Both the position numbers and the translations under genes were made by a program. The notes below the pieces were generated by a model, which was not told the origin of the DNA, did no database searches, and saw only the letters and a list, made by a program, of their open reading frames with translations. DNA of 64,000 nucleotides. Origin: Desulfobacteraceae bacterium (GTDB lineage: Bacteria; Desulfobacterota; DSM-4660; Desulfatiglandales; B25-G16). Each line of letters opens with the position of its first letter. Position 1 is the stretch's first letter. The stretch is taken from positions 1,399 through 65,398 of the forward strand of contig JAUWZV010000001.1 of the NCBI GenBank assembly GCA_030615105.1, read 5' to 3'. Shown in pieces: positions 17,089 through 37,038 of this stretch.

Positions 17089-17736
17089 ATGAAAATGGGA
17101 AAAAAATTAAACAGTCAGCCAGTTTATCATTCTCATAAAGTATCAAGTAAAAAGAACAGAAAAACTCAAATACTTGAAGCTGCCGCTTTGGTCTTCAAAA
17201 AAAAAGGTTATGATAGGGCCACTCTTCAAGACATTGTCAGCATTGTAGGCATAACCAAGGCGGCTCTCTATCATTACTTTCAAAACAAACATGAGCTGTT
17301 TTATACAATTATTCACACCATGATGATAAGGGGCATCGATGAGCTGACTAAAATTTTCGGAATGCCTATTTCGGCAGAAGAAAAGATCTGTCTTGCCTTC
17401 AAACAACACTTTTCCTCCTATGAATCTCATTTCCCTGAATTTTTGGTACTGCTTCATGAAAAGACCAATTTACTGCCTCCAAAAATGGAGAAACAAATCA
17501 AACAAGAATTTAAGCAGTATATGTCTTTTTGGGAGCAATTTATAAGGGAAGGAGTTGCAACAGGGCATTTTAGGCAAGATTTAGATCCAAAGATCATGAC
17601 TTGGTCGGCCATCGGGATGTGCAATTGGGTTTATAAATGGGCTTCCCCAAAAGGAAGGCTCAAATTCAATCAGATTGCTGAGATTTTTACCAGCATTTTT
17701 TTGGTAGGGATCCGGCATCGAGAAAAGGTCGGATAG
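17089..17736 (+). CDS. TetR/AcrR-family transcriptional regulator
   Basis: ILEAAALVFKKKGYDRATLQDIVSIVGITKAALYHYFQNKHELF is the TetR N-terminal HTH. Confidence 0.85.
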   Translation: MKMGKKLNSQPVYHSHKVSSKKNRKTQILEAAALVFKKKGYDRATLQDIVSIVGITKAALYHYFQNKHELFYTIIHTMMIRGIDELTKIFGMPISAEEKICLAFKQHFSSYESHFPEFLVLLHEKTNLLPPKMEKQIKQEFKQYMSFWEQFIREGVATGHFRQDLDPKIMTWSAIGMCNWVYKWASPKGRLKFNQIAEIFTSIFLVGIRHREKVG

Positions 17737-17961
17737 ATCGCCAATATTGGCTCGCATTGGAGGAACTCTTTTACATGCCACCACTTAAGCCAGCTGTTTA
17801 AAACGTTTTTAAAAGGAATAGCTACGGAAAAAAAGATAGTGAACTCACCGATTTCGGAATTCTTCAGCTTAAGGTATTCTGCAGCCAAGCAAATATTGTC
17901 TCCGCCGAAGCTCGGAAGGAAAGAAACTGTGATTTCACCTACTTAGAAGAAGGACGCCAAC

Positions 17962-19119
17962 ATGGATTTCTCATTAAGTGAAGAACAGGAGATCTTACGT
18001 AATTCAATAAGGAAATTCCTGGAAAAGGAATATCCTAAAGAATACATTAGGAGAATCGATAAAGAAGAAGAATATCCTTTGGAGATCGTTCAAAAGATGG
18101 CCGAGTTGGGATGGCTTGGTCTTTCAATTCCAGAGAAATATGGAGGGGTTGGGGGTGACATTCTTGATCAGACTCTGATGATTGAAGAACTGGCTCGGTG
18201 TTCATCATCCATCGCTATAGCTTACTTGCTCAATATTTGTTTTGGTGCCAAGACCATCATTTACATGGGTAGCGAGAAGCAGAAAAAAAAATATTTACCT
18301 AAAATAGCCTCCGGTGATCTGATATTTTGTCTGGGCCTGACAGAGCCCAGCGGCGGAACAGATGCCCTCTCCTTGTCCACTCGAGCTGTAAGAAATGGTG
18401 ACCATTATGTAATCAATGGACAGAAGGTATTTATCACTGGGGCTCACGTATCTCACTACATAATTCTTGTGGCTAGGACGGGTCCCAAAAAGAAAAAACT
18501 AACACGAAATATTGGCATTTTTTTAGTGGATAGCAAGTCAAAAGGGATCAATATCCGTCTGCTTGATAAGCTCGGAAATAAAGCAACTGGAACCTGTGAA
18601 ATATTTTTAGAGGATGTGGTCGTTCCAGCCGAAAACATACTAGGTGATGAACGAAATGGTTGGTATCAAATCGTTAACACTCTTAATAACGAGAGGATTT
18701 CAGTAGCCGCTATTTGCTTAGGAACGACCCAGGCAGTTATCGATGAATCTTTGAAATATGTCTTGGAGCGAAAGGCATTTGGCAAGCCCATAGGTCAGTT
18801 TCAATATATTCAGAAATATATTGTCGATATGGTGATGGATCTGGAGGCCTCCCGGTTACTTACTTACAAGGCCGCCTGGCTTGAATCTCAAGGCAAAAAT
18901 TGCAATATTGAAGCTGCCATAGCCAAATTGGTGGCATCAGAGGCCTGTTTTAAAGCAACCACGAACGGAATGCGCATTTTCGCCGGATATGGGTACATGA
19001 TGGAATATGACATGCAGAGACTGTGGCGTGATTCTGAACTTTGGATCTTTGCCCCCATATCAAATGAAATGTCACGCAACCTTTTAGCGCAAGAATTGGG
19101 ACTCCCCAGATCTTATTGA
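17962..19119 (+). CDS. acyl-CoA dehydrogenase
   Basis: 385 aa. GLTEPSGGTDA and a typical ACAD three-domain pattern, with a C-terminal helical domain containing the catalytic-region motif YGYMMEYDMQRLWRD. Confidence 0.9.
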   Translation: MDFSLSEEQEILRNSIRKFLEKEYPKEYIRRIDKEEEYPLEIVQKMAELGWLGLSIPEKYGGVGGDILDQTLMIEELARCSSSIAIAYLLNICFGAKTIIYMGSEKQKKKYLPKIASGDLIFCLGLTEPSGGTDALSLSTRAVRNGDHYVINGQKVFITGAHVSHYIILVARTGPKKKKLTRNIGIFLVDSKSKGINIRLLDKLGNKATGTCEIFLEDVVVPAENILGDERNGWYQIVNTLNNERISVAAICLGTTQAVIDESLKYVLERKAFGKPIGQFQYIQKYIVDMVMDLEASRLLTYKAAWLESQGKNCNIEAAIAKLVASEACFKATTNGMRIFAGYGYMMEYDMQRLWRDSELWIFAPISNEMSRNLLAQELGLPRSY

Positions 19120-19246
19120 TCAAGTAATGTGGTCTCATGGAGCAGGCTGGGGTATGTATAAATCAAACATCATACGGTTTTCTGGTGGCAGAAAACCGGG
19201 GAAAGGGTAGTTTTTAAAACATTAATCACCATTGTGGGTATAAAAT

Positions 19247-20386
19247 ATGGGCAAGAGAGTAGCGATTGTTGATACGGTTCAGACCGAACACGGAGACAAA
19301 CTTGAGGACAATATCCGGGAGATCATGTTTGGCGTTGTCAGACAGCTCCTGGATCGTGTGGGAATTGAGAAATCCGAAATCGGGACCATGGTTTCAGCCT
19401 CCTCTGATTATTGGGAGGGGATCAGTTGCTCCAACGCCTATTATTATGATGCTGCGGGTGCCAATCTGAAGAGCGGTTCCAACGCGGAAGAGGACTCGGG
19501 TCTCGCCTTTATCTATGGTTTTATGCGAATTCTCTCGGGGGACTATAAAACCGCGTTGGTCATCAGTATAACGAAATGTTCGGAGACCCCCTCAGCGGCC
19601 ACTCTAACACACATGAGTGCGGACCCTTTTTTTCACCGGCCGGTCGGGCTAAATGAAACGGTGGTTGCAGGTCTTCAGGCAAGGGAATATATGAACCGCT
19701 ATGGCATCACAGAAGAAGACCTGGCCATGGTGGTGGTAAAAAATCTCGGAAACGCCCAAAAAAATCCATATGCACATAGGGGTGGGCAACTGTCTGAGGA
19801 AGAGGTCTTGGCTTCATCCATGATGGTCTATCCCTTGCGAGAAATGGATATCCCCTCCACCTCTGATGGTGCCTGCGCAGTTTTATTGGCCGAGGAAAAG
19901 ATTGCCAGGGATCTGACCGATACACCGATATTTGTTGAGGGCGTGGGCTGGGGTACTGATCATTCCTTTTTGGGAGATCGAAATCTTTTAAATGGATCCT
20001 TGCCAAAAGCGGCTGAGAGGGCCTATCAGATGGCTGGGGTAAAAGATCCTTCCAACGAGATAGACATGGCCGAAATCTGCGATATAACCTCCTTTCATGA
20101 GATCTTATGGATGGAGCAATTGGGTTTTTGCCCCCCAGGAAAGGGAGCAGATCTTGTCAAAGACGGCGTAACAGCTATGCATGGCAAACTTCCGGTGAAC
20201 CCTTCCGGAGGTTTGTTTGGGGCCAATCCCTATGTTGCCCGCGGTCTGATCCGGATTGCTGAGGCCGCTATGCAGCTAAAGGGAGAGGCGGGAGATCGTC
20301 AGGTGCTGGACGTGAGCAGGGCGGTTGCCCAAAGCGTTCACGGGTTGGGCGGTCAATTACATTCTGTCATTATTCTTGGAACATAG
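19247..20386 (+). CDS. SCP-x-type thiolase-like protein lacking the nucleophilic Cys
   Basis: Thiolase-like throughout (VNPSGGL, HGLGG). Where the paralog has ATCGSTG, this protein reads NAEEDSGLAF. Confidence 0.8.
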   Translation: MGKRVAIVDTVQTEHGDKLEDNIREIMFGVVRQLLDRVGIEKSEIGTMVSASSDYWEGISCSNAYYYDAAGANLKSGSNAEEDSGLAFIYGFMRILSGDYKTALVISITKCSETPSAATLTHMSADPFFHRPVGLNETVVAGLQAREYMNRYGITEEDLAMVVVKNLGNAQKNPYAHRGGQLSEEEVLASSMMVYPLREMDIPSTSDGACAVLLAEEKIARDLTDTPIFVEGVGWGTDHSFLGDRNLLNGSLPKAAERAYQMAGVKDPSNEIDMAEICDITSFHEILWMEQLGFCPPGKGADLVKDGVTAMHGKLPVNPSGGLFGANPYVARGLIRIAEAAMQLKGEAGDRQVLDVSRAVAQSVHGLGGQLHSVIILGT

Positions 20387-20398
20387 GGAGAATTTGGT

Positions 20399-21565
20399 AT
20401 GGGTCACGCAGTAGCCATTATCGGTACGGGTCAGACTCACTGTGGAAAAAGAACGGATGTTTCCTATCCTGAATTGATTTATGAGGCAGTAAGTAGGGCC
20501 TTTGAGGATTCCGGGCTGAGTCCGGATGATATTGAGGCCGTTGTGTCAGGCTCGATGCCTCCTGCCATGGAAGGTGTCAATAACCCCCACCTTTATTGGG
20601 CCGATGCCATGGGTGCCGGAGGAAAACCTCTCATAAGGATTGCGACCTGTGGTTCTACCGGCATATCGCTGGCTCATGCCGGTTTTTATCATGTGTCCTC
20701 AGGGCTTTTCGATCTGGTCCTGGTGGTGGGGGCAGAAAAGATGTATGAGGGAAACCCACAGGGGGTCATGGCCACTGTGGCAGATCCATTCTTTCAGAGG
20801 CCATTTTTGGCCGGTGCACCTGGGATCTTTGCACTTCAATCCAACGAATGGGCTCACCGTTATGGCCTTGAAGAGAAACGGGTGCGAATGGCTGCTGCCG
20901 AGTTATCAGTGCGAAACCATACGGATGCCCTGGATAATCCCTATGCTCACATTAAGGTTAAGATTGCTGTCGAGGATGTTCTTAAATCCCGTGTCATTGC
21001 TTATCCAGTCAGGATTCTGGATGTGTGCCCGGCCTCAGATGGTGCCTGCGCGGTTATCATGGCCTCGGAAAGAATGGTCAGAAAAATGGGGGCGAAGCCA
21101 GCCTGGATTCGTGGGGTAGGTTACTGTGGCGAAGAGGCATTTTTTGGTGAGGGAGACAAAGTGGTCTGGCAGGCTGCCATCAATGCGGCCAAAACAGCTT
21201 ACAAGCAGGCAGGCATAACAGATCCACGGAAAGAAATAGATGTGGCTGAGGTGTATAACCCTTTCACATTTCAGGAAATGCTTTTTTATGAGTGCTTTGG
21301 TTTTTGTGATTTTGGCCAGGCCTGCGAGCTTGTGGAGAAAGGGGTTGTTATGAGAGGAGGTGATCTCCCTTGCGATCCTTCCGGAGGTGTGCTTTGCACC
21401 AATCCCATCGGTGCAACCGGTTTACAGAGGGCCGCTGAGATCGCACTTCAGGTAACCAACAAGGCGGGTGACCATCAGATTCCCGGAGCAAGTACGGGAC
21501 TGACACATGCCATGGGAGGCCTTGATCAATTTAATGGGATTATGATCATTTCAAATTCATTATAG
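20399..21565 (+). CDS. SCP-x-type thiolase-like protein (Cys present)
   Basis: IRIATCGSTGISLAHA...VVGAEKM and CDPSGGV. It has CTNPIGATG where thiolases usually have GHPxGA(T/S)G. Confidence 0.8.
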   Translation: MGHAVAIIGTGQTHCGKRTDVSYPELIYEAVSRAFEDSGLSPDDIEAVVSGSMPPAMEGVNNPHLYWADAMGAGGKPLIRIATCGSTGISLAHAGFYHVSSGLFDLVLVVGAEKMYEGNPQGVMATVADPFFQRPFLAGAPGIFALQSNEWAHRYGLEEKRVRMAAAELSVRNHTDALDNPYAHIKVKIAVEDVLKSRVIAYPVRILDVCPASDGACAVIMASERMVRKMGAKPAWIRGVGYCGEEAFFGEGDKVVWQAAINAAKTAYKQAGITDPRKEIDVAEVYNPFTFQEMLFYECFGFCDFGQACELVEKGVVMRGGDLPCDPSGGVLCTNPIGATGLQRAAEIALQVTNKAGDHQIPGASTGLTHAMGGLDQFNGIMIISNSL

Positions 21566-21580: not shown

Positions 21581-22045
21581 ATGAGTGGAGAATCCAGAAT
21601 ATTAGAAGGCTACGTTAGTTTGCCCTATAAATGGGCAATGGGTGCTGCTACCACCCGTTTCTTTGAAGAATTAAAAAACAAGAAAATTATGGGAACAAAA
21701 TGTCCAAAATGTAATCGGGTTTTGATACCGGCTAGAAGCTTCTGTTCCCATTGCTTTGAGAAAATAGATGAGTGGAAGGAGGTTTCACAAGAAGGAACAC
21801 TTAGGACCTGGTGTACGGTAAATTTTTCTTATGAAGGGCAACCCAAGGAGCCTCCTTACATCCTCGGCATCATTGATCTGGATGGCGCGGATGTAGGACT
21901 TCCCCATTTTGTGGGAGGCGTGGATTTGGACGACTTTGAGGAAGCTGCCAAAAAGGTTCATATCGGAGGCAGGGTAAGGGCGGTCTGGAAAGAGAATAGA
22001 ACGGGGAATATCCTGGATATAGATTATTTCCAACCGGTTGAATAA
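21581..22045 (+). CDS. DUF35 zinc-ribbon / OB-fold protein (thiolase partner, BbsA-like)
   Basis: CPKCNRVLIPARSFCSHC rubredoxin-like ribbon followed by an OB-fold-like C-half. It lies immediately downstream of the thiolase pair. Confidence 0.8.
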   Translation: MSGESRILEGYVSLPYKWAMGAATTRFFEELKNKKIMGTKCPKCNRVLIPARSFCSHCFEKIDEWKEVSQEGTLRTWCTVNFSYEGQPKEPPYILGIIDLDGADVGLPHFVGGVDLDDFEEAAKKVHIGGRVRAVWKENRTGNILDIDYFQPVE

Positions 22046-22120
22046 TCTCTGAATTCTATCTTTGTGCTTTTGTGGGCAAGGAATTCGTTAGCTTATTAAA
22101 ATCTATTTTAAGAGGACGCC

Positions 22121-23746
22121 ATGGTTAAGAAAGAGAGCAGATCTACCATTTCTGGGATTTCTCAGAAAATTTTCTACCCACGGGCAGACATTGTCCACAC
22201 AATGACTGAAGGGAAAGAGGAGAAACCAGGGGAATTTCCTTTCACTCGAGGAATTTTCCCCCAGGGCTACCGTCAACAGCCATGGATGGAGAGTTTGGCG
22301 AGCGGCTATGGATTACCTGAAAAAACCAACGAGCGGGAGAAGTACTTGTCTAAGGTCGGACAGGCGGGATACGGTGGCCGAGCGTCTATCAACCTGGTCT
22401 TTGATAGGCCTACGTTCTGCGGCATGGACAGTGATCATCCCATGGCTCAGAACGAATTGGGCGAGGTTGGTGTGATCATTGATTCCCTGATGGACATGGA
22501 GCGACTTTTTAAGGGCTTCCCCTTGGACAGATTGAACGTAGGTTTTATTGCTGACCGCTCAGGCCCTATCATTATGGCCATGTATGTGGCCCTTGCTGAC
22601 AAGCTTGGTATCTCTAGGCATAAGTTGAGGGGGATTGTCTGCAACAATCCTTTGACAGACTTCTACTGCAGCAAGACCCCGATGTTTCCACTCCGAGAGT
22701 GCCTTCGTCTGATGGTGGATTGCATCAAGTTTTGTACTGAAGAGGTGCCCAATTTCAACATTGCTCGAATTGGAGGTTACAACACCAGGGAACTGGGCAG
22801 TACTGCGATTCAGGAGATCGGTTTTAACTTAGCCATTGCAAAAACCATTGTGGAGGCCTGTGTAGAGGAAGGACTGAGTGTTGACAAATTTGCGGGCAAC
22901 ATCAGCTTTCAGTTTTCCCAGGGGAGCTACTTTTTCGAGGAGATTGCCAAGATACGCGCGGCGCGAAGGATTTGGGCCAAATTGCTGAAAGAAGGATTTG
23001 GTGCAGAGAAAGACTCTATTTGTCGGATGAAGATCCACATGCAGACTGCTGGCTCCAGCCTCACAGCACAGGAGCCCCTTAACAACATTGCTCGCATTGC
23101 GCTTCAGGTTTTGTCTGCGAGCCTCTCCGGCTGCCAGAGTATGCATATTGCCTCCTTTGATGAAGCCCTTGGCATTCCTACCGAAGAAGCTGCTAGTGTG
23201 GCTATCAAAACCTCCAAGATCGTGATGCACGAGACAGGAATAACAGATGTAGCTGACCCATTAGGTGGTTCCTATTATATGGAGGCTCTGACAGAGGAAA
23301 TTGAGAAGAGGATTGTGAAACTTATGGAGCGTATCGACGAACTTGGAGGAGCGATTAAGGCAATTGAGGAGGGGGTTTTCGAACAAGAGATTGCCGATGC
23401 CAGTTACTTGCTTCAAAAAGAGATATCTGAGGGCAAACGAGTTATCGTGGGGATGAATCGTTTTCAGGAGAAAGACCAGAAGCTGGAGTATAAGGTCTTT
23501 AGGCCCGATCCGAAGGTATCCAGCATAGCTATAGATCGTGTGAGGAAACTGAGGGAAGAGAGGGATCAGGAGCGGGCGGAAAAATGTATTGAACAAATTA
23601 GAGAAGCAGCGCGAAGAAATGAGGCACTAATGCCCCTCTATATCGAAGCTGCTAAGTCCAATGTCACGCTTGGGGAGATGATTAGAGCCCTGGAAGAGGG
23701 ACTGGGTACATTCCAATATTCGCCGATTATCTCCAGGGTTGAATAA
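22121..23746 (+). CDS. B12-dependent acyl-CoA mutase large (substrate-binding) subunit, paralog 1
   Basis: FPFTRGIFP, FFEEIAKIRAARRIWAKL, HMQTAGSSLTAQEPLNNIARIALQ, DEALGIPTEEA and DPLGGSYYMEALT are methylmalonyl-CoA-mutase family blocks. Confidence 0.85.
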   Translation: MVKKESRSTISGISQKIFYPRADIVHTMTEGKEEKPGEFPFTRGIFPQGYRQQPWMESLASGYGLPEKTNEREKYLSKVGQAGYGGRASINLVFDRPTFCGMDSDHPMAQNELGEVGVIIDSLMDMERLFKGFPLDRLNVGFIADRSGPIIMAMYVALADKLGISRHKLRGIVCNNPLTDFYCSKTPMFPLRECLRLMVDCIKFCTEEVPNFNIARIGGYNTRELGSTAIQEIGFNLAIAKTIVEACVEEGLSVDKFAGNISFQFSQGSYFFEEIAKIRAARRIWAKLLKEGFGAEKDSICRMKIHMQTAGSSLTAQEPLNNIARIALQVLSASLSGCQSMHIASFDEALGIPTEEAASVAIKTSKIVMHETGITDVADPLGGSYYMEALTEEIEKRIVKLMERIDELGGAIKAIEEGVFEQEIADASYLLQKEISEGKRVIVGMNRFQEKDQKLEYKVFRPDPKVSSIAIDRVRKLREERDQERAEKCIEQIREAARRNEALMPLYIEAAKSNVTLGEMIRALEEGLGTFQYSPIISRVE

Positions 23747-23760: not shown

Positions 23761-24171
23761 GTGGACAAACAGAGAAAAATACGTGTGCTACTTGCAAAGG
23801 CAGGGTTGGATACCCATGAGAGGGGGGTGAAGCTGATTGCCGCCTCTCTGCGGGACGCCGGTATGGAGGTGATTTATAGTGGTGTGTTCCAAACGAGCAT
23901 GAGCATTACCCGTACCGCCCTCCAAGAGGATGTGGATGTCATTGGCCTGAGTTATTTGTGTGGAGCGCATCAATCATTGACTCAGGAGATCTTGAAAGAG
24001 CTTCAAAAAAACGGGCTGGGAGATGTAGCGGTTATCTGCGGCGGTATTATTCCTGGTGAAGACATCGAGCAGATGAAGGCCATAGGCGTCAAAGAGATTT
24101 ACGGTCCTGGTACACCTATGGAGAGAATTATCAAAGGTATACATGAATTGGCTGAATCCAGGATTCATTAG
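23761..24171 (+). CDS. cobalamin-binding small subunit, paralog 1
   Basis: GTG start with a GGGGAGG RBS. RVLLAKAGLDTHERGVK carries the DxHxxG motif, followed by a Rossmann-like B12-binding domain. Confidence 0.85.
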   Translation: MDKQRKIRVLLAKAGLDTHERGVKLIAASLRDAGMEVIYSGVFQTSMSITRTALQEDVDVIGLSYLCGAHQSLTQEILKELQKNGLGDVAVICGGIIPGEDIEQMKAIGVKEIYGPGTPMERIIKGIHELAESRIH

Positions 24172-28744: not shown

Positions 28745-29644
28745 ATGGGCGAAGAATTGGAATATCTAATTCAAACGATCATGGGGGGGCTATCCACAGG
28801 GAGCGTGTATGCCTTAATTGCCCTTGGGTTTGTTCTGATCTATAAAGCTACAGACGTTTTAAATTTTGCTCAGGGTGAACTGATGATGATGGGGGCCTTT
28901 TTCTGTTTCACGGCCATCGTCTATTTCAAACTTAGTTTCATTCCCGCCTTTTTGCTATCCCTTGTCTTTTCTGCGGTCATAGGCTTTCTCATCAATGTGA
29001 TCGCTATTCGGCCCATGGTAGGCAAACCCGTATTTTCCATAGTGATGATCACTATCGGCTTGGCTACCATTTTTCGAAGTATAGTTGGCCTCATTTTTGG
29101 ACATATTGAGAAACCATTTCCTTCGCCTTTTCCCATTGAAAAAGCCATCAATATAGGAGGCTTATACATCTCCATGGTGCATATCTGGATGATCTCCATT
29201 AGCATCATCTTCGTGCTTTTATTTTACCTCTTTTTCAAGTTCTCAATCCTCGGTATCGCCATGAAGGCCGCCGCCAATGAGCAGATAGCCACCATGCTAC
29301 AGGGCATCAATATCAAAAAAATGTTTGCCCTGTCATGGGGCATTGCTGCAATTACTTCCACGGTTGCAGGCGTTTTTCTGGCCAGTGCGAGCTTCATCCA
29401 TTGTGATATGGGGTTCATTGGTCTCAGGGCATTTCCAGCAATCGTTCTCGGTGGCTTGGATAGTGTGGCGGGAGGGGTCATCGGCGGATTTACCATTGGT
29501 TTGATTGAGAACTTGGCTGGTGCTTATTTAGATAAGGCCCTTGGGGGTGGGGTTAAGGAGATCACATCCTATGTCATTGTGATCTTTATCATGATGATCA
29601 AACCATATGGCCTTTTTGGAAAGGAACATATCGAAAGGGTATAA
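28745..29644 (+). CDS. LIV-type ABC transporter permease (LivH-like)
   Basis: Multi-pass membrane protein. NFAQGELMMMGAF and the C-terminal IKPYGLFGK are typical of LivH. Confidence 0.85.
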   Translation: MGEELEYLIQTIMGGLSTGSVYALIALGFVLIYKATDVLNFAQGELMMMGAFFCFTAIVYFKLSFIPAFLLSLVFSAVIGFLINVIAIRPMVGKPVFSIVMITIGLATIFRSIVGLIFGHIEKPFPSPFPIEKAINIGGLYISMVHIWMISISIIFVLLFYLFFKFSILGIAMKAAANEQIATMLQGINIKKMFALSWGIAAITSTVAGVFLASASFIHCDMGFIGLRAFPAIVLGGLDSVAGGVIGGFTIGLIENLAGAYLDKALGGGVKEITSYVIVIFIMMIKPYGLFGKEHIERV

Positions 29645-29650
29645 GTATTA

Positions 29651-30694
29651 ATGACTAGTGGCAACTTTAAAGAGACCTATAGGGAAGATATAAAGGTTTT
29701 CCAGACCTTTTTCGTCAAATTCTGGTTAGTCCTTTTTATTTTGATCATGCTCTTTCTTCCTTTCATCGCGGACAGATACTTTATCTATCTGGCCAATTTA
29801 TCGGGGATAGCGATCATAGGGGCATTAGGGATAAATCTACTTACCGGATATACCGGCCAGGTCTCACTGGGGCATGCTGCCTTCTTGGCCATTGGCGCTT
29901 ACACCGCAGCTATTTTGTCGTCCAGGTTTGGAATTCCCTTCTGGATCCTTATTTTTGTTTCAGGCATATCCGCTTCCCTGTTTGGCCTGATTATCGGTAT
30001 CCCCTCTTTAAGGTTACGAGGGCTTTATCTCGTGATTACTACTATGGCCTTCCAATTTATTGTAGAACATGTGCTCTTCCGATGGGAGACCCTGACGCAT
30101 GGGGACGAAGGGATTGCACTGCCTGTTCCAAGTATCGCAGGTTTCAGCTTTGAAACGGACCAGAGATTCTACTATCTAATCTTTGTTGCGACCGCACTTG
30201 CCATAATAACCATGAAGAATGTCATCCGGACAAGGACGGGGAGAGCCTTACAGGCGCTCAGGGACAGGGATATCATAGCTGAGACCATGGGTATCAACTT
30301 GGCAAAGTATAAACTCCTGTCCTTTATTGGCAGTTCATTTTATGCCGGTGTGGCAGGAGCGCTCTATGCTTACTACTTGGCTTTTATCAGTCCGGATCAT
30401 TTTAGCCTGATGGTCTCTATTCAGTACATCGCCATGATTATCGTTGGGGGTATGGGGACTATACTTGGCTCCATCTTCGGGGCTGTCTTCATTATCTTGC
30501 TTCCAGAGATGCTTGGCTTTATGAGCAGGGGTATTGCAAGCCACTTCCCTCTTTTCGAAACCGGTTTTGGAGATGTGAAAAACCTTGTTTATGGGCTCAT
30601 CATCGTTGGCTTTCTGATCTACCAGCCCGACGGGCTTTATGGGTATTGGATCAGGATCAAGACCTATTTTAAGACTTACCCGTTCACCTTTTAG
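29651..30694 (+). CDS. LIV-type ABC transporter permease (LivM-like)
   Basis: LLTGYTGQVSLGHAAFLAIGAY and GINLAKYKLLSFIGSSFYAGVAGALY are typical of LivM. Confidence 0.85.
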   Translation: MTSGNFKETYREDIKVFQTFFVKFWLVLFILIMLFLPFIADRYFIYLANLSGIAIIGALGINLLTGYTGQVSLGHAAFLAIGAYTAAILSSRFGIPFWILIFVSGISASLFGLIIGIPSLRLRGLYLVITTMAFQFIVEHVLFRWETLTHGDEGIALPVPSIAGFSFETDQRFYYLIFVATALAIITMKNVIRTRTGRALQALRDRDIIAETMGINLAKYKLLSFIGSSFYAGVAGALYAYYLAFISPDHFSLMVSIQYIAMIIVGGMGTILGSIFGAVFIILLPEMLGFMSRGIASHFPLFETGFGDVKNLVYGLIIVGFLIYQPDGLYGYWIRIKTYFKTYPFTF

Positions 30695-30808
30695 ACCTAT
30701 GATCCTAACGTGGGCGGAAAAATATCTTTAGAGGAAGGGAGGTGACAAATGGTTTTTGTTAATTTTGGGAATGAAATATTAATGTTAAACAATGAGGAGG
30801 TATAAAAA

Positions 30809-32020
30809 ATGAAAAAGCTGATGTTAATCATGGTGTTTTTTGCCGCTATGCTATTTGCAACACTGCCAGTTATGGCTGGTGGTGTTCCAGGCGTGGATGA
30901 AAAGACTATAAAGATTGGAATGCTGACAGATTTTTCCGGCCCCGGGAGGCATCCGGGACACGAGTGTTATATGGGCGTTAAAATGTGGGTGGATCAAGTG
31001 AATATGAAAGGCGGTATCAATGGTCGGAAGATCAAGCTTTTTTATGGTGACCATGGTTGGGATCCAAGCCGGGGTATGGCTGAGGCCAGGCGCTTAGTCG
31101 CCCAACATGACATTTTTGGCCTCGTTGGCACCTGTGCTAGCTCTGTCAATAAGGTCCTCATGCCATTTTTAAAAAAGGAGAAATTACCTAACATCGGTCC
31201 CATGTCTGTTTCCAGATTCCTGTGGGATCCGCCCAAGAAATACACTTTTGCCATCCTCACGGACACGAATCGTGTTTTCCAGGTTTTGGTGGAGTATATC
31301 GTTCAAGACCTTAAAGTGAAAAATCCCGCGATCGGTATTATCTATCAGGATGATGCATGGGGGAAGGATGGCCTTCGGGGCCTGAAGACGGCTGCCAAGA
31401 GGCATGGGATTACACTTGTAGCCGAGGAATCTTACAAACGGGGTAGCGTGGACTTTGCCACACAGATGCTGAATTGCAAGAGGGCTGGGGCCAAGTATAT
31501 TTTCCATCCAGGCTTCTCAGCTGCTATGGCAGGCATTATGCAAGAGGCCGCCAAAATTAATTATTCTCCAAAATTTCTTGGTGAGACAGGCTGCATGACT
31601 TTTTCAATGCTGAAGGTCGCCGGAGCATTGGCTAAAGATCAGATTTTCGGGTACCCCTGCGCCGTGGATGGTGTGGAAGTTTCGGGAATAAAAAAGCTCA
31701 AACAGATAAGCAACAAATACAGGCCGAAACTTGATTCCAAATTTAAATCGGGTGACAAACTGGATCCCAACTATATTATAGGCTATGGTGCAGGCTTAGT
31801 CTTCGGGGAAGGTTTGAAGAGAGCTGGTCGCGATATAACACGAGAAAAATTTATAAAGGCGTTGGAAAGCCTAAAGGATTGGGAAATGGGCGGCATCTTC
31901 GGCCCTGTTACTTATGGTCCGGATGATCGCGATGGATCTGGCTGGACCATGGTATATAAGGCAGATCCAGAGAACATGCGTTTTGTCCCAGTGACCGGCT
32001 TCAGAAAGCCCGCACAATAG
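30809..32020 (+). CDS. ABC transporter periplasmic substrate-binding protein (LivK / Peripla_BP_6 type)
   Basis: Signal peptide MKKLMLIMVFFAAMLFATLPVMAGG. IKIGMLTDFSGPG start, typical of this binding-protein family. Confidence 0.85.
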   Translation: MKKLMLIMVFFAAMLFATLPVMAGGVPGVDEKTIKIGMLTDFSGPGRHPGHECYMGVKMWVDQVNMKGGINGRKIKLFYGDHGWDPSRGMAEARRLVAQHDIFGLVGTCASSVNKVLMPFLKKEKLPNIGPMSVSRFLWDPPKKYTFAILTDTNRVFQVLVEYIVQDLKVKNPAIGIIYQDDAWGKDGLRGLKTAAKRHGITLVAEESYKRGSVDFATQMLNCKRAGAKYIFHPGFSAAMAGIMQEAAKINYSPKFLGETGCMTFSMLKVAGALAKDQIFGYPCAVDGVEVSGIKKLKQISNKYRPKLDSKFKSGDKLDPNYIIGYGAGLVFGEGLKRAGRDITREKFIKALESLKDWEMGGIFGPVTYGPDDRDGSGWTMVYKADPENMRFVPVTGFRKPAQ

Positions 32021-32275
32021 CGAGGGAAAAGGTATCTATAAATAATCCAATCAACTTCCTGCCCACCCGGGACTTAAACCTCAACCGAGGGGTCCTGGGT
32101 AGATGCAGGGATATAGGTATAAAGATGGACCTCCTAACCGGCACTGTAATGCCAACCCCAAGGTGTTTACCACAGGTTGGCCCACAGGTTAAAATAACCG
32201 GACTTGCTGGTGGATTTAATGATTGTTCCACTATTAAGGGTTTCCATTATTATTACTATTAAGGAGGTTAATATA

Positions 32276-33964
32276 ATGTTTGATGCAGAAACCCTAAAGA
32301 AGGATTTGGAAGACCGGAAAGCCTGGGAACGGTCCTTTAAAAAGCGATACTTGAAAAGCTTTGAAAACAAAACACATTCAGGAATTCCAGTTAAATCGGT
32401 CTATTCACCTTCGGATATTCTGGATTTTGACTTAAAAAAATGTCCTTCCCCCGGGAACTATCCATACACACGGGGAATCTACCCGGCCCAATACCAGTTT
32501 CAGGCCTGGATGAACCAGCAGGTACACGGATATGGGCAGGCGGAGGATACCCGGGAGAGGATGGACATATTAGTGAAGGAGGGGATGGAAGGTTACTTTG
32601 GGAACCTGGTTTTTAATCTGGTCCTGGATCTGGTCTCACAGGCGGGATTAGACCCGGATGATCCTGAGGCACGGGGAAAGGTTGGCCAGGTGGGAGTCCA
32701 TATTAGCTGCCTGAAAGACTTGGAGATTCTTTTTGATGGTTTGCCCCTTAAAAAGGTTAATGCCAGTTTTATTGTGGGTGAACCCTCTATCTGTTTGCTG
32801 GCCATGTACATTCTATACGGAGAAGGTCGTGGTGTACCAAAGGAAAATTTAAGAGGCAACACCATGAACTACCTATTGCGGGGGTTTAATTGGGATGTGG
32901 CCATGTATCCCCCAAAGAATGCCCTCAAGATCTCGGTTGAACTGATTCGCTACTGCTCCCGTTTCATGCCCACCTGGAATACGACCAATTTAAGTGGTTA
33001 TATTATTCGGGAGGCAGGCGCCTCTGCTGTCCAGGAACTGGCATTTACCCTTGCCAAGGGAATGAATCTTATCGAGACCTGCATGGAAGCAGGCCTTAAA
33101 CCAGATGATTTTGTCCCTCGCTTTGGCTTTCAACTCGGCTTTCACAACGACTTTTTCGAAGATATTGCCAAGTACCGGGCCTTGCGCCGGATGTGGGCAA
33201 CCATTAATCACGATCGATACGGGTGCCGGAATCCTAAGTCCCTCCAGGCCAGAATTCATACCCACACCTGTGGAAGTTCACTGGTGGCCCAGCAACCCAT
33301 GAATAACATCATCCGAGCGACTCTACAGACATTTGGGGCAGTTCTTGCTGGAACCAATGCCTTGCAGACGAGCGCTTATGATGAAGCTCTTTCAATTCCA
33401 ACGGAGCAGGCAGCCACTCTTGCTCTCAGGACCCAGCAGATTATCCAGCATGAGAGTGGGGTCACAAAAGTATCCGATCCACTTGCCGGAAGCTATTATC
33501 TGGAAAGGCTGACCGACGAAATGGAAAAGAGTGCCTATAAAATTCTGGACACGATCGAAGGGATGGGAGGTTTTATCAAGGCGTACGAAACGGGCTGGCT
33601 TAGGGAGCAAATTGCCGAGGAAGCATTGAAATGGCGGCATCGATTGGATAGTGTGGAGGAGGTCATAGTAGGTTTGAATCGCTACCAGGAAGAGGGAGAA
33701 AAGGTTGAGGTGCCGCACTTTCATGTAGATGAGAAAATCGAGCAACGAGCCATTGAAAGGATCCAGGAATACCGTAAAAACAGGGATCAGGGCAAGTGCC
33801 AGGAAGCATTAAATCGCCTCCGGAAAGTGGCCGTGAAGGTGGAGCAAGGCAACCGGCATTACTTTTTAATGGAGGCTCTGATTGATGCTTACAGAGCCAA
33901 GGCTACCCTTGGTGAGACCATGTCAATCCTGAAGGAAATCTTAGGTTATGGTTATGCTTACTGA
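32276..33964 (+). CDS. B12-dependent acyl-CoA mutase large subunit, paralog 3
   Basis: Track ORF 32204. ATG 32276 follows an AAGGAGGT RBS. Family blocks: YPYTRGIYP, FFEDIAKYRALRRMWATI, HTHTCGSSLVAQQPMNNIIRATLQ, DPLAGSYYLERLT. Confidence 0.85.
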   Translation: MFDAETLKKDLEDRKAWERSFKKRYLKSFENKTHSGIPVKSVYSPSDILDFDLKKCPSPGNYPYTRGIYPAQYQFQAWMNQQVHGYGQAEDTRERMDILVKEGMEGYFGNLVFNLVLDLVSQAGLDPDDPEARGKVGQVGVHISCLKDLEILFDGLPLKKVNASFIVGEPSICLLAMYILYGEGRGVPKENLRGNTMNYLLRGFNWDVAMYPPKNALKISVELIRYCSRFMPTWNTTNLSGYIIREAGASAVQELAFTLAKGMNLIETCMEAGLKPDDFVPRFGFQLGFHNDFFEDIAKYRALRRMWATINHDRYGCRNPKSLQARIHTHTCGSSLVAQQPMNNIIRATLQTFGAVLAGTNALQTSAYDEALSIPTEQAATLALRTQQIIQHESGVTKVSDPLAGSYYLERLTDEMEKSAYKILDTIEGMGGFIKAYETGWLREQIAEEALKWRHRLDSVEEVIVGLNRYQEEGEKVEVPHFHVDEKIEQRAIERIQEYRKNRDQGKCQEALNRLRKVAVKVEQGNRHYFLMEALIDAYRAKATLGETMSILKEILGYGYAY

Positions 33965-34000
33965 TGGGGTGGATATAGCTTTATTTTTGGAGTTGAGAGA

Positions 34001-34432
34001 ATGGCAGAGGGTACAACTAATCAGGCTAAAGAGGAATATGGTCGTTCAGGGCAAGATAGAAAAATAAGGGTATTATTGACCAAATCCCGGATGGATGCAC
34101 ATGATCGCGGGATCAGAGATGTGGCAAAGGAACTGAGTAATGCCGGGATGGAGGTCGTTTTTACCCGGTATGCACTGCCGGAGGAGATTGTGAAGACCGC
34201 CATTCAGGAGGGTTCGGATGTAATCGGAGTGAGTTGCTCTACTGGAGGGCATCTCTACGTGACGGAAAGGATTCAAGACTGTTTGGAAAAAGAAGGGATA
34301 AAAGAGATCAAGGTGATTTTTGGCGGGATCATACCGGACGTGGATGTGCCCAAGATGAAAGAAAGAGGCGTGGTGGGCATATTCGGACCGGGTTCTTCTG
34401 TCCAGGAGATCATCCGGGCAATTACTGAATGA
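34001..34432 (+). CDS. cobalamin-binding small subunit, paralog 3
   Basis: RVLLTKSRMDAHDRGIR carries the DxHxxG motif. Confidence 0.85.
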   Translation: MAEGTTNQAKEEYGRSGQDRKIRVLLTKSRMDAHDRGIRDVAKELSNAGMEVVFTRYALPEEIVKTAIQEGSDVIGVSCSTGGHLYVTERIQDCLEKEGIKEIKVIFGGIIPDVDVPKMKERGVVGIFGPGSSVQEIIRAITE

Positions 34433-34478
34433 AAACAGCCCCTGGCTGGCAGCTAAATGAATTGGAAAAGAGACTTTT

Positions 34479-35273
34479 ATGCTGGGAATCAAAAATCTCG
34501 AAATTACCTATCATGACATTATTCTGGTTATAAAAGGCATATCTTTGACAGTCAAAGATGGTAGTATGGTCGCCCTTTTAGGTGCCAATGGAGCAGGCAA
34601 AAGCACTATTCTGAAGGCGGTATCAGGGGTTCTCGAGGTCGAAGATGGCGATATTGAGGATGGAACTATTGATTTTGATGGGATTCGTCTTAATAACAAA
34701 ACCCCCCATTTCATTGTCAAAAAGGGTCTCATTCAAGTTCCAGAAGGCCGCCGTATCTTTGATGAACTCACCGTGGAAGAAAATATCCGGATTGGCTCTT
34801 TTCTGCGGAAGGATTCAAAGAAGATAAAAGAAGACTACGAAAATGTTCTGGCTTATTTCCCTTCTTTAGTCCACCTAAAGAAGCGCCTTGCCGGTTATCT
34901 TAGCGGAGGAGAACAGCAGATGCTGGCCATTGGTAGAGCCATGATGGCAAAACCACGATTGCTTATGCTCGACGAGCCGTCTCTGGGGTTGGCCCCTATA
35001 CTAGCTCATCAGGTTTTTAATAGGGTTAAGGAGTTTAATAGCAGGGAAGGGGTTTCTGTTTTGCTGGTCGAGCAAAATGCCATTATGGCCTTAGATGTGG
35101 TGGAGTATGGCTACATTATGGAAAACGGCAAAATCGTCTTGGACGGCCCAAGCCATAAACTCGTTGAAAACCCTGATATTAAGGAATTTTATTTGGGACT
35201 TACGGATGTGGGTGGGAAGAAGAGCTATCGGGATATCAAACATTACAAAAGAAGGAAGCGATGGCTTTCTTGA
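34479..35273 (+). CDS. LIV-type ABC transporter ATP-binding protein (LivF-like)
   Basis: Walker A GANGAGKST, signature LSGGEQQMLAIGRA, Walker B LLMLDEPSLGLAP. Basic C-terminal tail KHYKRRKRWLS. Confidence 0.85.
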   Translation: MLGIKNLEITYHDIILVIKGISLTVKDGSMVALLGANGAGKSTILKAVSGVLEVEDGDIEDGTIDFDGIRLNNKTPHFIVKKGLIQVPEGRRIFDELTVEENIRIGSFLRKDSKKIKEDYENVLAYFPSLVHLKKRLAGYLSGGEQQMLAIGRAMMAKPRLLMLDEPSLGLAPILAHQVFNRVKEFNSREGVSVLLVEQNAIMALDVVEYGYIMENGKIVLDGPSHKLVENPDIKEFYLGLTDVGGKKSYRDIKHYKRRKRWLS

Positions 35274-35301
35274 CCTTTTTTACAAATCCTTGGAGGTAGG
35301 G

Positions 35302-36747
35302 ATGGTCGATAATAAAGAAATTGAAAGGTTAAAGAGGACGTATGAAGCCTGGAAAGAAGAGGATTTAGAAGGGCCTATCAGGAAATACGGTGAACGGGTT
35401 GAGAGATTTGAAACAAGGTCGGAGATACCCGTTAAGCCTTTATACACGCCATTGGATATTGAAGGATTTGATTATCTGGAAAAACTCAATTTCCCGGGCA
35501 GGTATCCATTTACGCGAGGCATCTATGCAGAGGGGTACCGTACGAGGACTTGGTTCGTCCGGGGCTTGTTTGGATACGGAACGGCGGAAGAGACGAATCA
35601 GAGAATGAAATTCCTTATTCATCAAGGAGCGACTGGGCTTAACATTGTTTTTGACGCCCCCACGGGTTGGGAAGGCATAGACGCGGATAACCCATTGGCT
35701 ATGGGTGAAGTGGGTAAAAACGGGGTTTCTGTGAATACACTGAAAGATATGGAGGATATGTTCAAGGGACTCCCTGTTGAGAAATTGAATGTAACGTGGG
35801 CCTCCTGTGTTGGGGCATCAAACATACCCCTGACGGCTATGTATATTGCCATGGCCCAAAAGAGAGGTTTAGATATTTCTAAATTAAATGGGGCGGCCAT
35901 AAATGATATCTTTGTGGGATATTCCCTTAACGTCTGTTCTCTGCCTTACACCCATCCCAAAGACGCCCTAAAGGATTGGTGTGATGCAGTGGAACATGCC
36001 ATTTTGCACATGCCGAATTGGTTTCCGTGCTCCATTGCTTCTTATGAGATGGGTGAATCAGGAGCGACGCCCGTTCAACAGATCGCATTTACTATTGCTG
36101 CGGCCATCTCCTATACCAGAGCGCTTATGGAGCGAGGCCTCAAGGCAGAGCAGATTTCTCCAAAATATGCGGTTTTTCTATCCTGTGGGAATATTTTTTT
36201 AGAAGAGGTGGCCAAGTACCGTGCTCTGAGAAGAATGTGGGCCAAGACCTTCAGAGAGAAATTTGGGGTTACGTTAAAGAGAGGGCTGCAGTGCAGGATC
36301 CATACCCAGACCTCAGGATTGACCCTGAGGGCCGAGCAACCCCTAAATAATATTGTCAGAACGACATGCCAGAGTTTAGCTTCCATTTTCGGTGGAACCA
36401 ATTCCTTATACACAGACCCTTATGACGAGGTAGTGGGTCTCCCTACCGAAGAATCTCATCGTCTTGCAATGAGGACTCAACAGATCATCATAGAAGAAAC
36501 AGGGGTTGCCGATACTATCGATCCACTTGCTGGGTCCTATTACATTGAATCTCTCACGGACAAGGTGGAGGAGGAGGCCTGGAAGATAGTGGATAGGGTT
36601 GAGGAGATGGGCGGAATGCTGGAGGCTATTGAAAGACGGTATTTCCGGTCCCTGATTGATGAGTCTTACCATAGATATCTCAAAGCTGTGGAAAACAATG
36701 AAAAGGTTATTGTTGGATATAACAAATACCACCACACAGAAGAACTA
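35302..36747 (+). pseudogene. B12-dependent acyl-CoA mutase large subunit, paralog 4, C-terminally truncated
   Basis: ATG 35302 follows a GGAGGT RBS. The track ORF 35095 is a spurious upstream extension overlapping livF. Family blocks are present up to VIVGYNKYHHTEE. The last ~90 residues seen in paralogs 1-3 are replaced by the 291-bp repeat. No small subunit follows. Confidence 0.7.
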
Positions 36748-37038
36748 CCTATCAACAATCGGCAGAGGACCCCGGGCGTAAGCCCGGGGGTGAATGCCTT
36801 AATGAGCACGACCTTGATGTCTTTTCTTACGTTCCAAGGCTCCCGGCCTGGTCTTTTCAACGACTTATCTGCAGGGGAGTTTTGCCCCCTCCGCATTCCC
36901 CCGACAAGTCGGGGGCTGCGGTTTCCCCCGCTGATAAGTCGTGAAAAGGACGGCGGCCTCTCACCAGTCACTCAGAAAAAACATCAAGGCCTGCCATTGT
37001 CTCTAAGTGCCACGGGCGTAAGCCCGTGTGCATCTACT
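36748..37038 (+). repeat. 291-bp rod-hairpin repeat, copy 2
   Basis: Same orientation as 16504-16794, with 7 substitutions. It begins inside the mutase-4 reading frame. Confidence 0.85.

Follow-up and report, generated by a model that had tools for sequence, protein, structure and literature searches.

A conserved gene module predicted to link four non-canonical acyl-CoA mutases to one importer and one CoA ligase in Desulfobacteraceae

Introduction

To our knowledge, about six specificities of acyl-CoA mutases have been characterised, namely methylmalonyl-CoA mutase (MCM), isobutyryl-CoA mutase (ICM), pivalyl-CoA mutase (PCM), 2-hydroxyisobutyryl-CoA mutase (HCM, with RCM), ethylmalonyl-CoA mutase (ECM), and the arylsuccinyl and alkylsuccinyl types. 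Here we describe a gene module within a 64,000-nt stretch of DNA from a Desulfobacteraceae bacterium (assembly GCA_030615105.1, contig JAUWZV010000001.1, positions 1,399 to 65,398; this whole stretch is referred to as the window), in which the large subunits of four B12-dependent mutases (L1 to L4) and small B12-binding subunits (S1 to S3; S4 is found with L4 in related genomes) are encoded on the plus strand together with genes for one importer and one CoA ligase. A first-pass annotation of the window took it that characterised pathways use one mutase each, which is not strictly true, because the ethylmalonyl-CoA pathway uses both ECM and MCM.

The closest described system is HcmAB of Aquincola tertiaricarbonis (PDB 4R3U), in which, as in the module, the substrate barrel sits on a large subunit (about 560 aa) and the motif DxHxxG on a separate B12 subunit (about 135 aa). 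The HCM operon includes the mutase, a dedicated CoA ligase (hcl), a regulator and the G-protein chaperone MeaH, and one Bacillus carries both HCM and RCM, a second departure from the rule of one mutase each (PMC7176365). The module differs from the HCM operon in that it holds four mutases instead of one, an ABC importer interleaved with the mutase genes and a ligase of long-chain type, and the Ile90/Asp117/Gln208/His245 set of HCM is found in none of L1 to L4. In a proteogenomic study of Desulfococcus multivorans, the degradation of branched acids was assigned without such mutases. MutB, human MMUT and ECM belong to the same superfamily (PF01642 plus PF02310) and share Tyr243, Glu247, His328 and Glu370 with the module mutases, but the latter are without Arg207, Gln197 and His244 of MCM and ECM and carry the large and B12 parts on separate polypeptides. 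IcmAB/IcmF and PCM act on non-carboxylated short branched acyl-CoAs, the type favoured below for the module, and the IcmAB subunits are also separate, whereas the ICM signature Phe89, Gln207 and His244 (FAQQKYHFQN in database homologs) is found in none of L1 to L4. The postulated (1-methylalkyl)succinyl-CoA mutase and the arylsuccinyl-CoA mutase IaaGH are likewise anaerobe-type mutases feeding beta-oxidation; in contrast to these, the module mutases are without the carboxylate-binding Arg, and neither a carboxyltransferase nor a glycyl-radical enzyme is encoded in the module or its orthologs.

The roles of Tyr89, Arg207 and His244 (MCM numbering) and of Asp117 (HCM) are taken here from the literature on MCM, ICM and HCM. 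Arg207 of MCM binds the free carboxylate and Asp117 of HCM the hydroxyl, and His244 assists the rearrangement in MCM and is conserved also in ICM and ECM.

Results

Divergence and active-site residues of the four mutases

Genes of the window were placed by a listing of open reading frames (ORFs) and by Pfam and NCBIfam profiles. A total of four mutase large subunits were identified, L1 (541 aa; 22121-23746), L2 (566 aa; 24414-26114, with the ATG at 24414 set as start by the 566-aa length of orthologs), L3 (562 aa; 32276-33964), and L4 (35302-36752), which is truncated at about 484 of 569 codons. The Pfam E-values for MM_CoA_mutase ranged from 1e-150 to 1e-180 (1e-166 for L1, 1e-180 for L2, 2e-168 for L3). 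Against PF01642 and TIGR00641, L1 to L3 matched at full length with 513-602 bits, and L4 covered profile positions 2-444 of 512 and was followed by sequence that is not protein-like, in agreement with the truncated fourth mutase of the first-pass annotation. Each of the small subunits S1 (23761-24171), S2 (26245-26643) and S3 (34001-34432) matched B12-binding of Pfam (E-values 3e-18 to 2e-24) and NCBIfam profiles (acid_CoA_mut_C for S1), with Pfam and TIGR00640 scores above the cut-off, and the motif DxHxxG was confirmed in the translations as LDTHERG, LDGHDLG and MDAHDRG, respectively. No further mutase or B12-domain fragment was detected by tblastn in the 64-kb window.

The large subunits are 37-46% identical to each other and the small subunits 44-50%. 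Since HCM and MCM are 42-43% identical, the mutual distance of L1 to L4 is about equal to that between two enzymes of different specificity, and the four are best read as ancient and distinct paralogs, not as recent duplicates, as had been proposed on inspection. The best solved match of all four was HCM (380-437 bits, 38-40% identity) and the second best was MCM (32-40% identity), and the nearest PDB entries of S1 were 2yxb and HcmB (4r3u_C). Scores for the MCM equivalog (NF006944) stayed at 377-509 bits versus a cut-off of 876 bits, and those for the IcmF equivalog at 226-262 bits versus 1500 bits; among the NCBIfam models, L1 to L4 passed that of the generic domain alone. In a neighbour-joining tree (midpoint-rooted, no bootstrap), HCM, MCM and ICM-like proteins were grouped together, and L1, L3 and the sister pair L2/L4 formed separate non-canonical clades.

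The pocket positions were read from residue-level alignments to 4R3U, 2XIJ and 1REQ and from MAFFT alignments, in which the recovery of YAQR.YHFQN (canonical for MCM) and FAQQKYHFQN (expected for ICM) among database homologs served as an internal check. At the positions of MCM Tyr89, Gln197, Arg207 and His244, L1 (signature AVCSKYNQQA) carries Ala, Cys, Ser and Asn; L2 (YILCNYEYQN) Tyr, Leu, Cys and Glu; L3 (VVM(W)DYIQHS) Val, Met, a deletion next to Asp, and Ile; and L4 (LVILNYEFQD) Leu, Ile, a deletion next to Asn, and Glu. Thus, Gln197, Arg207 and His244 are absent from all four, and Tyr89 is kept in L2 only. The combination of Tyr89 and Arg207 that marks MCM and ECM was not found, Arg being present in none of the four, and in place of the ICM pair (Phe for Tyr89, Gln for Arg207) there are A/S, Y/C, V/- and L/- in the order L1 to L4. 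Likewise, the HCM residues Ile90, Asp117 and Gln208 are replaced by A/Y/V/L, V/I/V/V and S/C/-/-, respectively. The His at position 244, which is conserved in the MCM and HCM aligned here, is missing from all four large subunits, and this loss is the strongest oddity of the set. Judged against MCM, ICM and HCM, the tree, the signatures and the equivalog scores altogether place L1 to L4 outside the characterised specificity classes; they did not gather within any single characterised clade.

The scaffold of the active site is kept. Tyr243, Glu247, His328, Asp369 and Glu370 are invariant in L1 to L4, and Tyr243, Glu247, His328 and Glu370 were invariant also in the orthologs of L1 to L4, in HCM and in MCM. 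By rough bookkeeping, which is not a pocket calculation, ten pocket side chains of L1 sum to about 230 cubic angstroms below those of MCM, and the sums for L2 to L4 are about equal to that of MCM.

Orthologs of the four mutases and related loci

One-to-one orthologs of L1, L2, L3 and L4 were found in contig JBDRMX010000003.1 (GCA_043811775.1) with 81, 81, 88 and 87% identity, and in GCA_975956835.1/GCA_975958535.1 with 74, 75, 81 and 84% identity, and the identities between paralogs across these sets stay at 35-50%. The pocket signature of L1 is kept down to about 50% identity, including in Alphaproteobacteria such as Ferrovibrio, and that of L2 down to 62%, including in a metagenome-assembled genome (MAG) of Rokubacteria; the signature of L3 is common to 17 orthologs of 75-100% identity, and that of L4 is found in about 10 proteins, in which position 244 varies among E, G and A. 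The nearest named relatives of the mutases are MAGs of Desulfobacteraceae and Thermodesulfobacteriota, in keeping with a host resembling sulfate reducers, and a search of genome contigs with L3 gave four loci, of which one was close (Desulfobacteraceae MAG, 84% identity).

The organization of genes around these orthologs was compared with that of the module. In JBDRMX010000003.1 (loci L001 and L006), one side carries S1, the thiolase pair, two DUF35 genes, a TetR gene, a FabK-like protein of the NMO family, L1, a pair of proteins resembling HGD-D and double-cubane enzymes, and an acyl-CoA dehydrogenase (ACAD), and the other side carries L2-S2, ligase, LivH, LivM, binding protein, L3-S3, LivF, L4-S4, LivG, hydratase, the alpha part of an ADP-forming acyl-CoA synthetase and an ACAD. 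The loci L007 and L008 consist of TetR, L1-S1, ACAD, LivF, ligase, LivH, LivM, binding protein, L3-S3, L4-S4, LivG, L2-S2, ACAD and MeaB. The Rokubacteria MAG (L017) encodes large subunits of L1 type (57%) with a small subunit, L3 type (59%) and L2 type (62%) with a small subunit, together with ACAD, LivG, ligase, LivH, LivM and binding protein, and a metagenome contig (L018) carries LivHM, an L1-like mutase with its small subunit, NMO, binding protein, L3 with its small subunit, two ACADs, LivG and an L4 type with its small subunit. Within the limits that contig ends set on calling a gene absent, every multi-mutase cluster seen combines the L1 and L3 types with L2, L4 or both. A metagenome scan with an L3-family alignment, run on patterns common to all mutases, gave only relatives near 40% identity, and these supplied a control set of 21 mutase-centred loci, unrelated and 15 kb or longer; 20 of these carry one large subunit and the remaining one carries two. 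Four large subunits within 15 kb are thus unlike normal mutase loci.

The mutase genes are interleaved with the transporter genes in the order binding protein, L3-S3, LivF, L4-S4, LivG, and this position between transporter genes argues for co-transcription. An AMP-forming ligase inside the LIV operon was found also in L004, L006, L007, L014, L015 and L017, a TetR gene adjoining an L1-type mutase in L001, L004, L007 and L014, LivG in L006, L007, L015 and L017, and 385-aa orthologs of the ACAD in L007 and L017. Solitary L1-type genes of Alphaproteobacteria are accompanied by TetR, a small subunit, MeaB, hydratase, FabK-like reductase, ACAD, AtuA and the same LIV-plus-ligase set. Across lineages and phyla, the mutases thus stay linked to a single LIV-type importer, a single ligase and a single ACAD, in support of the earlier proposal that the paralogs are tied to a single system of uptake and activation. 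Because one-to-one orthologs exist, the sets recur with the same transporter, ligase and dehydrogenase, and control loci carry single mutases, the module is considered to be conserved and functional.

Within this comparison, it must be asked whether some of the large subunits are non-catalytic structural partners that form one or two hetero-oligomeric enzymes, as MutA does with MutB in the MCM of Propionibacterium. The loss of Gln197, Arg207 and His244 from all four, the drift of position 244 among E, G and A in the L4 orthogroup, and the Rokubacteria operon with three large and only two small subunits are in line with such a role, for which MCM offers the precedent of an inactive paralogous subunit; the PDB chains 1e1c_B and 6oxc_B were matched weakly. 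MutA-type subunits are, however, far more degenerate (70-113 bits versus 280-437 bits for catalytic subunits). In the Desulfobacteraceae operons, moreover, a dedicated B12 subunit with DxHxxG intact is encoded after each large subunit, each orthogroup keeps its own pocket signature over long distances, and Tyr243, Glu247, His328 and Glu370 are invariant in all four, so that a purely structural role is considered very unlikely.

L1 to L4 belong to a large unstudied part of the mutase family. In a phmmer search with L2 against 1.84 billion cluster representatives, a total of 2,869 clusters were obtained at E <=1e-30, and among the best 150 of these only about half carry His at position 244. About half of the nearest metagenome clusters being non-canonical at the pocket positions, the chemistry of this family is under-sampled. 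The four orthogroups break the rule of the active-site histidine that is kept by all characterised mutases checked, each is under purifying selection, and they travel with one importer and one ligase across phyla.

Two observations on relatives of L1 and L3 are added. L1-type mutases adjoin a FabK-like FMN reductase (NMO family) in four loci, L001 (8816-15961), L002 (9132-11635), L004 and L014, and other neighbours of L1-type genes are the HGD-D/double-cubane-like pair (L001), a PhyH-family dioxygenase (L002), and AtuA with an alpha/beta hydrolase (L004, L014); these genes may hint at the substrate of L1. The signature VVM.GYGQHS, with Gly at both positions 208 and 244, marks a very large clade of L3 relatives (e.g. 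P0168, P0172, P0210, P0239), which is hosted by Streptomyces, Saccharopolyspora, other Actinomycetota and Alphaproteobacteria. It is annotated only as acyl-CoA mutase large subunit family protein and is apparently a further uncharacterised mutase type, present in cultured organisms.

Accessory genes of the module

Besides the mutases, the module encodes on the same strand a TetR-family regulator, an ACAD, a thiolase pair with DUF35 protein, a CoA ligase and the importer, and the ORFs and the Pfam and NCBIfam matches bear out the gene names and positions of the first-pass annotation. Its end coordinate, 37038, is that of a repeat copy (see below) and not of a gene.

The AMP-forming acyl-CoA ligase (26907-28721; Pfam AMP-binding and AMP-binding_C_3) is of FadD11/long-chain type, with 366 bits to FadD11, below the equivalog cut-off of NCBIfam. 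It is followed by a LivH-type permease (28745-29644), a LivM-type permease (29651-30694), both identified by BPD_transp_2 of Pfam with NCBIfam LivH and LivM scores below cut-off, and a periplasmic binding protein of LivK/HAAT fold with a signal peptide (30809-32020; Peripla_BP_6, E 2e-59), which is distant from the solved Leu/Ile/Val-binding proteins (<=82 bits). The ABC ATPase (34479-35273; Pfam ABC_tran) is of LivF type, with 202 bits to LivF versus 119 bits to LivG in NCBIfam. The single importer proposed before was thus found with its permeases, binding protein and LivF, but only one of its two ATPases is present in this copy, LivG being absent from the window. A set of LivH, LivM, LivK-type binding protein and LivF with an embedded AMP-forming ligase of 600 aa recurs in loci of Ferrovibrio, Rokubacteria and Desulfobacteraceae; compared with other LIV/HAAT importers, this copy differs in the missing LivG, in the mutase genes among the transporter genes and in a binding protein remote from LivJ/LivK. 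A gene for an AtoE-type short-chain fatty acid transporter (SCFA_trans; 58894-60288, minus strand) is located 22 kb downstream of the module and is predicted to be a second acid-uptake route in the same region.

The ACAD (17962-19119), in which all three ACAD domains of Pfam were found, is of the short-chain type like Bcd, CarC and glutaryl-CoA dehydrogenase (GDH), and its best PDB matches of about 260 bits were 1ukw, Bcd (5ol2), CarC (6fah) and GDH (3mpi). Subunit A of the SCP2-type thiolase (19247-20386; Thiolase_C_1) has lost the nucleophile Cys motif and the C-terminal Cys in the alignment, and its PDB relatives are SCP2 thiolases, BbsB and PhlC. Subunit B (20399-21565; Thiolase_N and Thiolase_C_1) keeps the motifs TCGSTG, CTNP and HAMGG with the nucleophile Cys, the His and the second Cys all present, and is related to 7yvy, 6hsj, BbsB (7pxp) and 6esq. 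The DUF35 protein (21581-22045; zf-ChsH2 and OB_ChsH2_C, i.e. zinc ribbon plus OB fold), a scaffold partner for thiolases of SCP2 type, gave a weak match to BbsA in NCBIfam. Because subunit B keeps the catalytic residues and subunit A has lost both cysteines, the unit is likely a heteromer of a catalytic and a non-catalytic subunit with DUF35. The combination of a thiolase fold with a DUF35 partner is known from BbsAB, the archaeal thiolase/HMG-CoA synthase/DUF35 complex, PhlABC and Ltp2-ChsH2 (7pxp, 6esq, 5m3k, 6ok1), from which the module differs in the pairing of the catalytic subunit with a paralog missing both cysteines and in scores below every equivalog cut-off.

The TetR regulator (17089-17736; TetR_N, TetR_C_24 and TetR_C_4) resembles FadR/YsiA, and its best NCBIfam match was Bacillus-type FadR with 67 bits, below cut-off. 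AT-rich palindromes of the form TTTAAAA..TTTTAAA occupy three gaps between genes in the module's first half, at 17797-17813, 19209-19219 and 22096-22111 (TTTAAAACGTTTTTAAA, GTTTTTAAAAC, TTAAAATCTATTTTAA); these may be candidate operators for the TetR regulator, or may have arisen by chance owing to their low complexity. Promoter and terminator scans of the module gave results no better than shuffled sequence, and no Rfam family, including the cobalamin riboswitch, was matched within the module.

Among the window ORFs of at least 150 aa, neither MeaB, a glycyl-radical enzyme, a carboxyltransferase nor an adenosyltransferase was detected with Pfam and NCBIfam. The absence of all four, noted earlier, therefore holds for the window; for MeaB it reflects the truncation of this copy and does not hold as a trait of the system, since the L007 operon ends in a MeaB gene (TIGR00750, 340 bits versus a cut-off of 241 bits), and MeaB is found also in the L1-type loci L004 and L014.

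Predicted function of the module

We favour, at somewhat better than even probability, the reading that the module serves the catabolism of one or more imported acids whose carbon skeleton has to be isomerised ahead of beta-oxidation, with branched non-carboxylated acyl-CoAs as the preferred substrates. The carboxylic acid would be taken up by the LIV-family ABC importer and converted to its CoA thioester by the FadD11-like ligase of the transporter operon. Two-subunit adenosylcobalamin mutases, in three or more distinct kinds (L1, L3, and L2/L4 as a sister pair), would then each run a 1,2-shift of the thioester group, acting on different isomers, homologues or successive intermediates. Because the pockets are without the carboxylate-binding Arg, without the Asp of HCM type and mostly hydrophobic, the substrates would most likely be non-carboxylated, branched alkyl acyl-CoAs, and the pocket of L1 would be much larger. 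The rearranged products would be degraded by the Bcd-type ACAD, an enoyl-CoA hydratase (lost here) and the SCP2-type thiolase heteromer with DUF35, a type of thiolase suited to alpha-substituted 3-oxoacyl-CoAs, under the control of the FadR-like TetR repressor. As a guess, acids with a tertiary or quaternary carbon or with multiple branches, the class named in the first-pass annotation, would fit such hydrophobic pockets without Arg.

Several points weigh against this catabolic reading. We infer every functional step for the L1-L4 orthogroups from sequence, and with His244 lost in all four the ordinary chemistry of acyl-CoA mutases is not guaranteed; the variation of position 244 in the L4 orthogroup adds to this concern. 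The acidic or polar residues of the pockets, Glu244 of L2 and L4, Asp208 of L3 and Ser/Asn/Gln of L1, could mean polar hydroxy or amino substrates, and the neighbourhood of one L3 relative, described below, hints at dicarboxylic ones. No 3-hydroxyacyl-CoA dehydrogenase is encoded in the module, and the thiolase/DUF35 set, which was not seen in the examined part of L007 or L017, may be non-core. The mutases may, moreover, act in series, in successive rounds of chain shortening or in parallel on isomers or homologues.

If the substrates are polar, HCM-type chemistry (2-hydroxyisobutyryl-CoA to 3-hydroxybutyryl-CoA) would be extended to other short hydroxy- or amino-acyl-CoAs, with the acidic and polar residues binding OH or NH3+ of a hydroxy or amino acid taken up through the LIV-type binding protein. 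Among solved structures, HCM is nearest to each of the four large subunits (380-437 bits) and to S1, Glu (L2, L4), Asp (L3) and Ser/Asn/Gln (L1) are placed in the pockets, and in HCM operons, too, a CoA ligase of its own accompanies the mutase, along with a chaperone and a regulator (PMC7176365). The residues by which HCM itself is recognised are nevertheless gone, Asp117 being replaced by Val or Ile in all four and the Ile90/Gln208/His245 set being absent; the ligase is of the long-chain FadD11 type, and the regulator is FadR-like. Among the neighbours of L1-type orthologs, the PhyH-family dioxygenase of L002 and the HGD-D or 2-hydroxyacyl-CoA-dehydratase-like pair of L001 would agree with polar substrates, but PhyH is a broad family, and the L001 pair scores higher as double-cubane reductase than as dehydratase, both below cut-off. 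Polar substrates are on the whole held to be unlikely.

Another alternative concerns dicarboxylic CoA esters. The mutases would convert alkyl-, aryl- or methyl-succinyl-CoA to substituted malonyl-CoA, as in the fumarate-addition and indoleacetate pathways, so that the module would scavenge substituted succinates, and the ACAD would be decarboxylating like benzylmalonyl-CoA or glutaryl-CoA dehydrogenase. The ACAD scores against the glutaryl-CoA dehydrogenase of Desulfococcus nearly as high as against its best model or structure, and a pairing of mutase and decarboxylating ACAD is known from the iaa pathway (PMC8360864). Among the closest non-orthologous relatives of L3, one of 54% identity (signature SPM-DYFQHS; locus L013, 4166-13532) is encoded directly after an 811-aa glycyl-radical enzyme, a small ORF and a radical-SAM activase, and is flanked by a two-subunit CoA-transferase and a carboxyltransferase, with no B12 small subunit adjoining it in L013. 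The glycyl-radical enzyme is not assigned as an alkylsuccinate (X-succinate) synthase, as no result supports this; it falls below the PFL2-3 cut-off and resembles dehydratase-type enzymes. In the mutases of the module, no Arg is found at or near the position of MCM Arg207 in any of the four, L3 having Asp and L4 Asn there, and genes for a carboxyltransferase or a glycyl-radical enzyme are absent from the window as well as from the orthologous operons. Dicarboxylic substrates are therefore regarded as quite unlikely.

Within the favoured reading of branched non-carboxylated substrates, an order of events can be imagined, though with low probability, in which three or four mutases in turn, or at successive rounds of chain shortening, walk the CoA-thioester around an obstacle to beta-oxidation, such as a methyl branch or a carbon that is tertiary or quaternary. 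A conceivable but likewise improbable example is the conversion of 3-methylacyl-CoA to 2,2-dimethylacyl-CoA and then to a 2-isopropyl-type acyl-CoA, followed by cleavage by the SCP2-type thiolase. If such a walk is true, strict anaerobes would gain an oxygen- and carboxylase-independent route for isoprenoid-like or neo-acids, and there would be four new acyl-CoA mutase reactions without the canonical active-site histidine.

In the open-access literature, no description was found of a multi-mutase operon of this kind or of the L1-L4 orthogroups, and nothing describing the module was found there under mutase with DUF35, pivalyl-CoA mutase or branched-acid degradation of Desulfobacteraceae. The mutase superfamily and the transporter-ligase unit are known, and what appears to be new is the conserved arrangement of four paralogs without His244, which points to undescribed carbon-skeleton rearrangements. 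As four enzyme pairs, one binding protein and one ligase together define a substrate, the uncharted diversity of mutases is made concrete. Should the substrates be acids with branches or quaternary carbons, the module would account for the opening of such skeletons by strict anaerobes, and would offer new isomerases for biocatalysis.

A 291-nt repeat and the 3' end of the module

The module lies between two full copies of a 291-nt direct repeat of 98% identity, at 16504-16794, about 300 bp upstream of the TetR gene, and at 36748-37038, and a partial third copy of 86% identity is located at 10001-10159. The minimum free energy of folding of the repeat gave z-scores of -6.9 (plus strand) and -8.5 (minus strand) versus shuffled sequence, both ends carry GC-rich hairpins of GNRA type, and no Rfam family was matched by the repeat. 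Copy 2 begins exactly where L4 loses its likeness to mutases, at Pfam position 444 of 512, and the L4 ORF reads on through the repeat to 37080, giving a 592-aa protein (P0241) that is called also in the source assembly. A 661-codon ORF at L4 was discarded as an artefact composed of an out-of-gene upstream start, the L4 fragment and the read-through of the repeat.

Positions 25305-36752 of the window have a 98.4%-identical counterpart in a sister contig of a different sample (L015; ENA ERZ24794679), which is free of the repeat. Beyond 36752, the sister contig continues with the rest of L4 (569 aa), S4 (140 aa, with the motif IDVHDVG), LivG (260 aa) and an enoyl-CoA hydratase. Up to base 36752 the L4 fragment is 98.6% identical to the intact L4 of L015, with the last approximately 85 residues gone and no other lesion, so the event is taken to be recent. 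Repeat copy 2 thus appears to have taken the place of the L4 3' end, S4, LivG and the hydratase in this copy. On the 3' side, copy 2 is bordered by sequence that lies upstream of a TonB gene.

At the junction, L4 and the repeat share 5 nt (CCTAT) with the intact L4 of L015. Because only these 5 nt are shared, the junction is read as probably a real, element-associated deletion rather than an assembly mis-join. The opposite explanation is that the assembly jumped between repeat copies, so that the loss of the L4 end, S4, LivG and the hydratase is an artefact and the real operon is complete, or that a repeat was merely inserted in L4. The 64 kb hold three or more copies of the repeat, and repeats are places where a metagenome assembler may join reads wrongly; moreover, the L4 fragment is otherwise without defect and as similar to its orthologs as intact genes are. 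A shared stretch of 5 nt is, however, too short for a k-mer mis-join, so that codon 484 of L4 must be joined to the repeat's left end in some real molecule. The public assembly carries the same 592-aa call, and even under the artefact explanation L4 is interrupted in this strain. An artefact is accordingly given little credence.

With L1/S1, L2/S2 and L3/S3 intact in this copy, at most three mutases would be able to work in this genome. LivF is the sole importer ATPase left in the window, and uptake would need an ATPase from elsewhere. The repeat behaves like a small mobile or recombinogenic element, and recombination between the two direct full copies could excise the whole 20.2-kb module.

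Two other rearrangements were considered and rejected. A transfer of the lost genes to the upstream side by inversion does not fit, since the hydratase (13316-14119) and the split ADP-forming ligase (11076-12475) located there share only 32% identity with the genes after the operon in L015 and L006. An interruption of the TonB gene by the module does not fit either, as both TonB parts are downstream of repeat copy 2.

Other features of the window

The TonB gene (37084-37690) is split into an ORF with the N-terminal membrane segment and SxxxH (37084-37305) and an ORF with the Pro-rich linker and TonB_C (37352-37690), owing to a frameshift in an A-rich stretch or to a sequencing error, and a tandem ACAAATG repeat is located just upstream of TonB, at about 37066-37096. 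The ADP-forming acyl-CoA synthetase alpha-type gene upstream of the module (CoA_binding plus Succ_CoA_lig; 11076-12475, minus strand) consists of two overlapping ORFs of 181 and 294 aa, and its counterpart in L006 is a single 462-aa chain; the split gene is probably a frameshifted pseudogene.

The region 1304-9246, just beyond which the partial repeat copy is located, looks like an integrated element, with a primase/AAA_25 protein (1304-3103), an ERCC4-domain protein (4259-4717) and a tyrosine integrase (7932-9128) beside tRNA-Leu(GAG) (9160-9246). Other families of intergenic repeats are located at 40156-40565, 43413-43647, 48936-49043, 51743-51861, 57226-57536 and 63296-63338; these share cores such as GGTCTGGGCCAGGG and a GC-rich hairpin (GACCCGCCCGCCTCGCC...), and the stretch is unusually rich in REP/MITE-like sequences.

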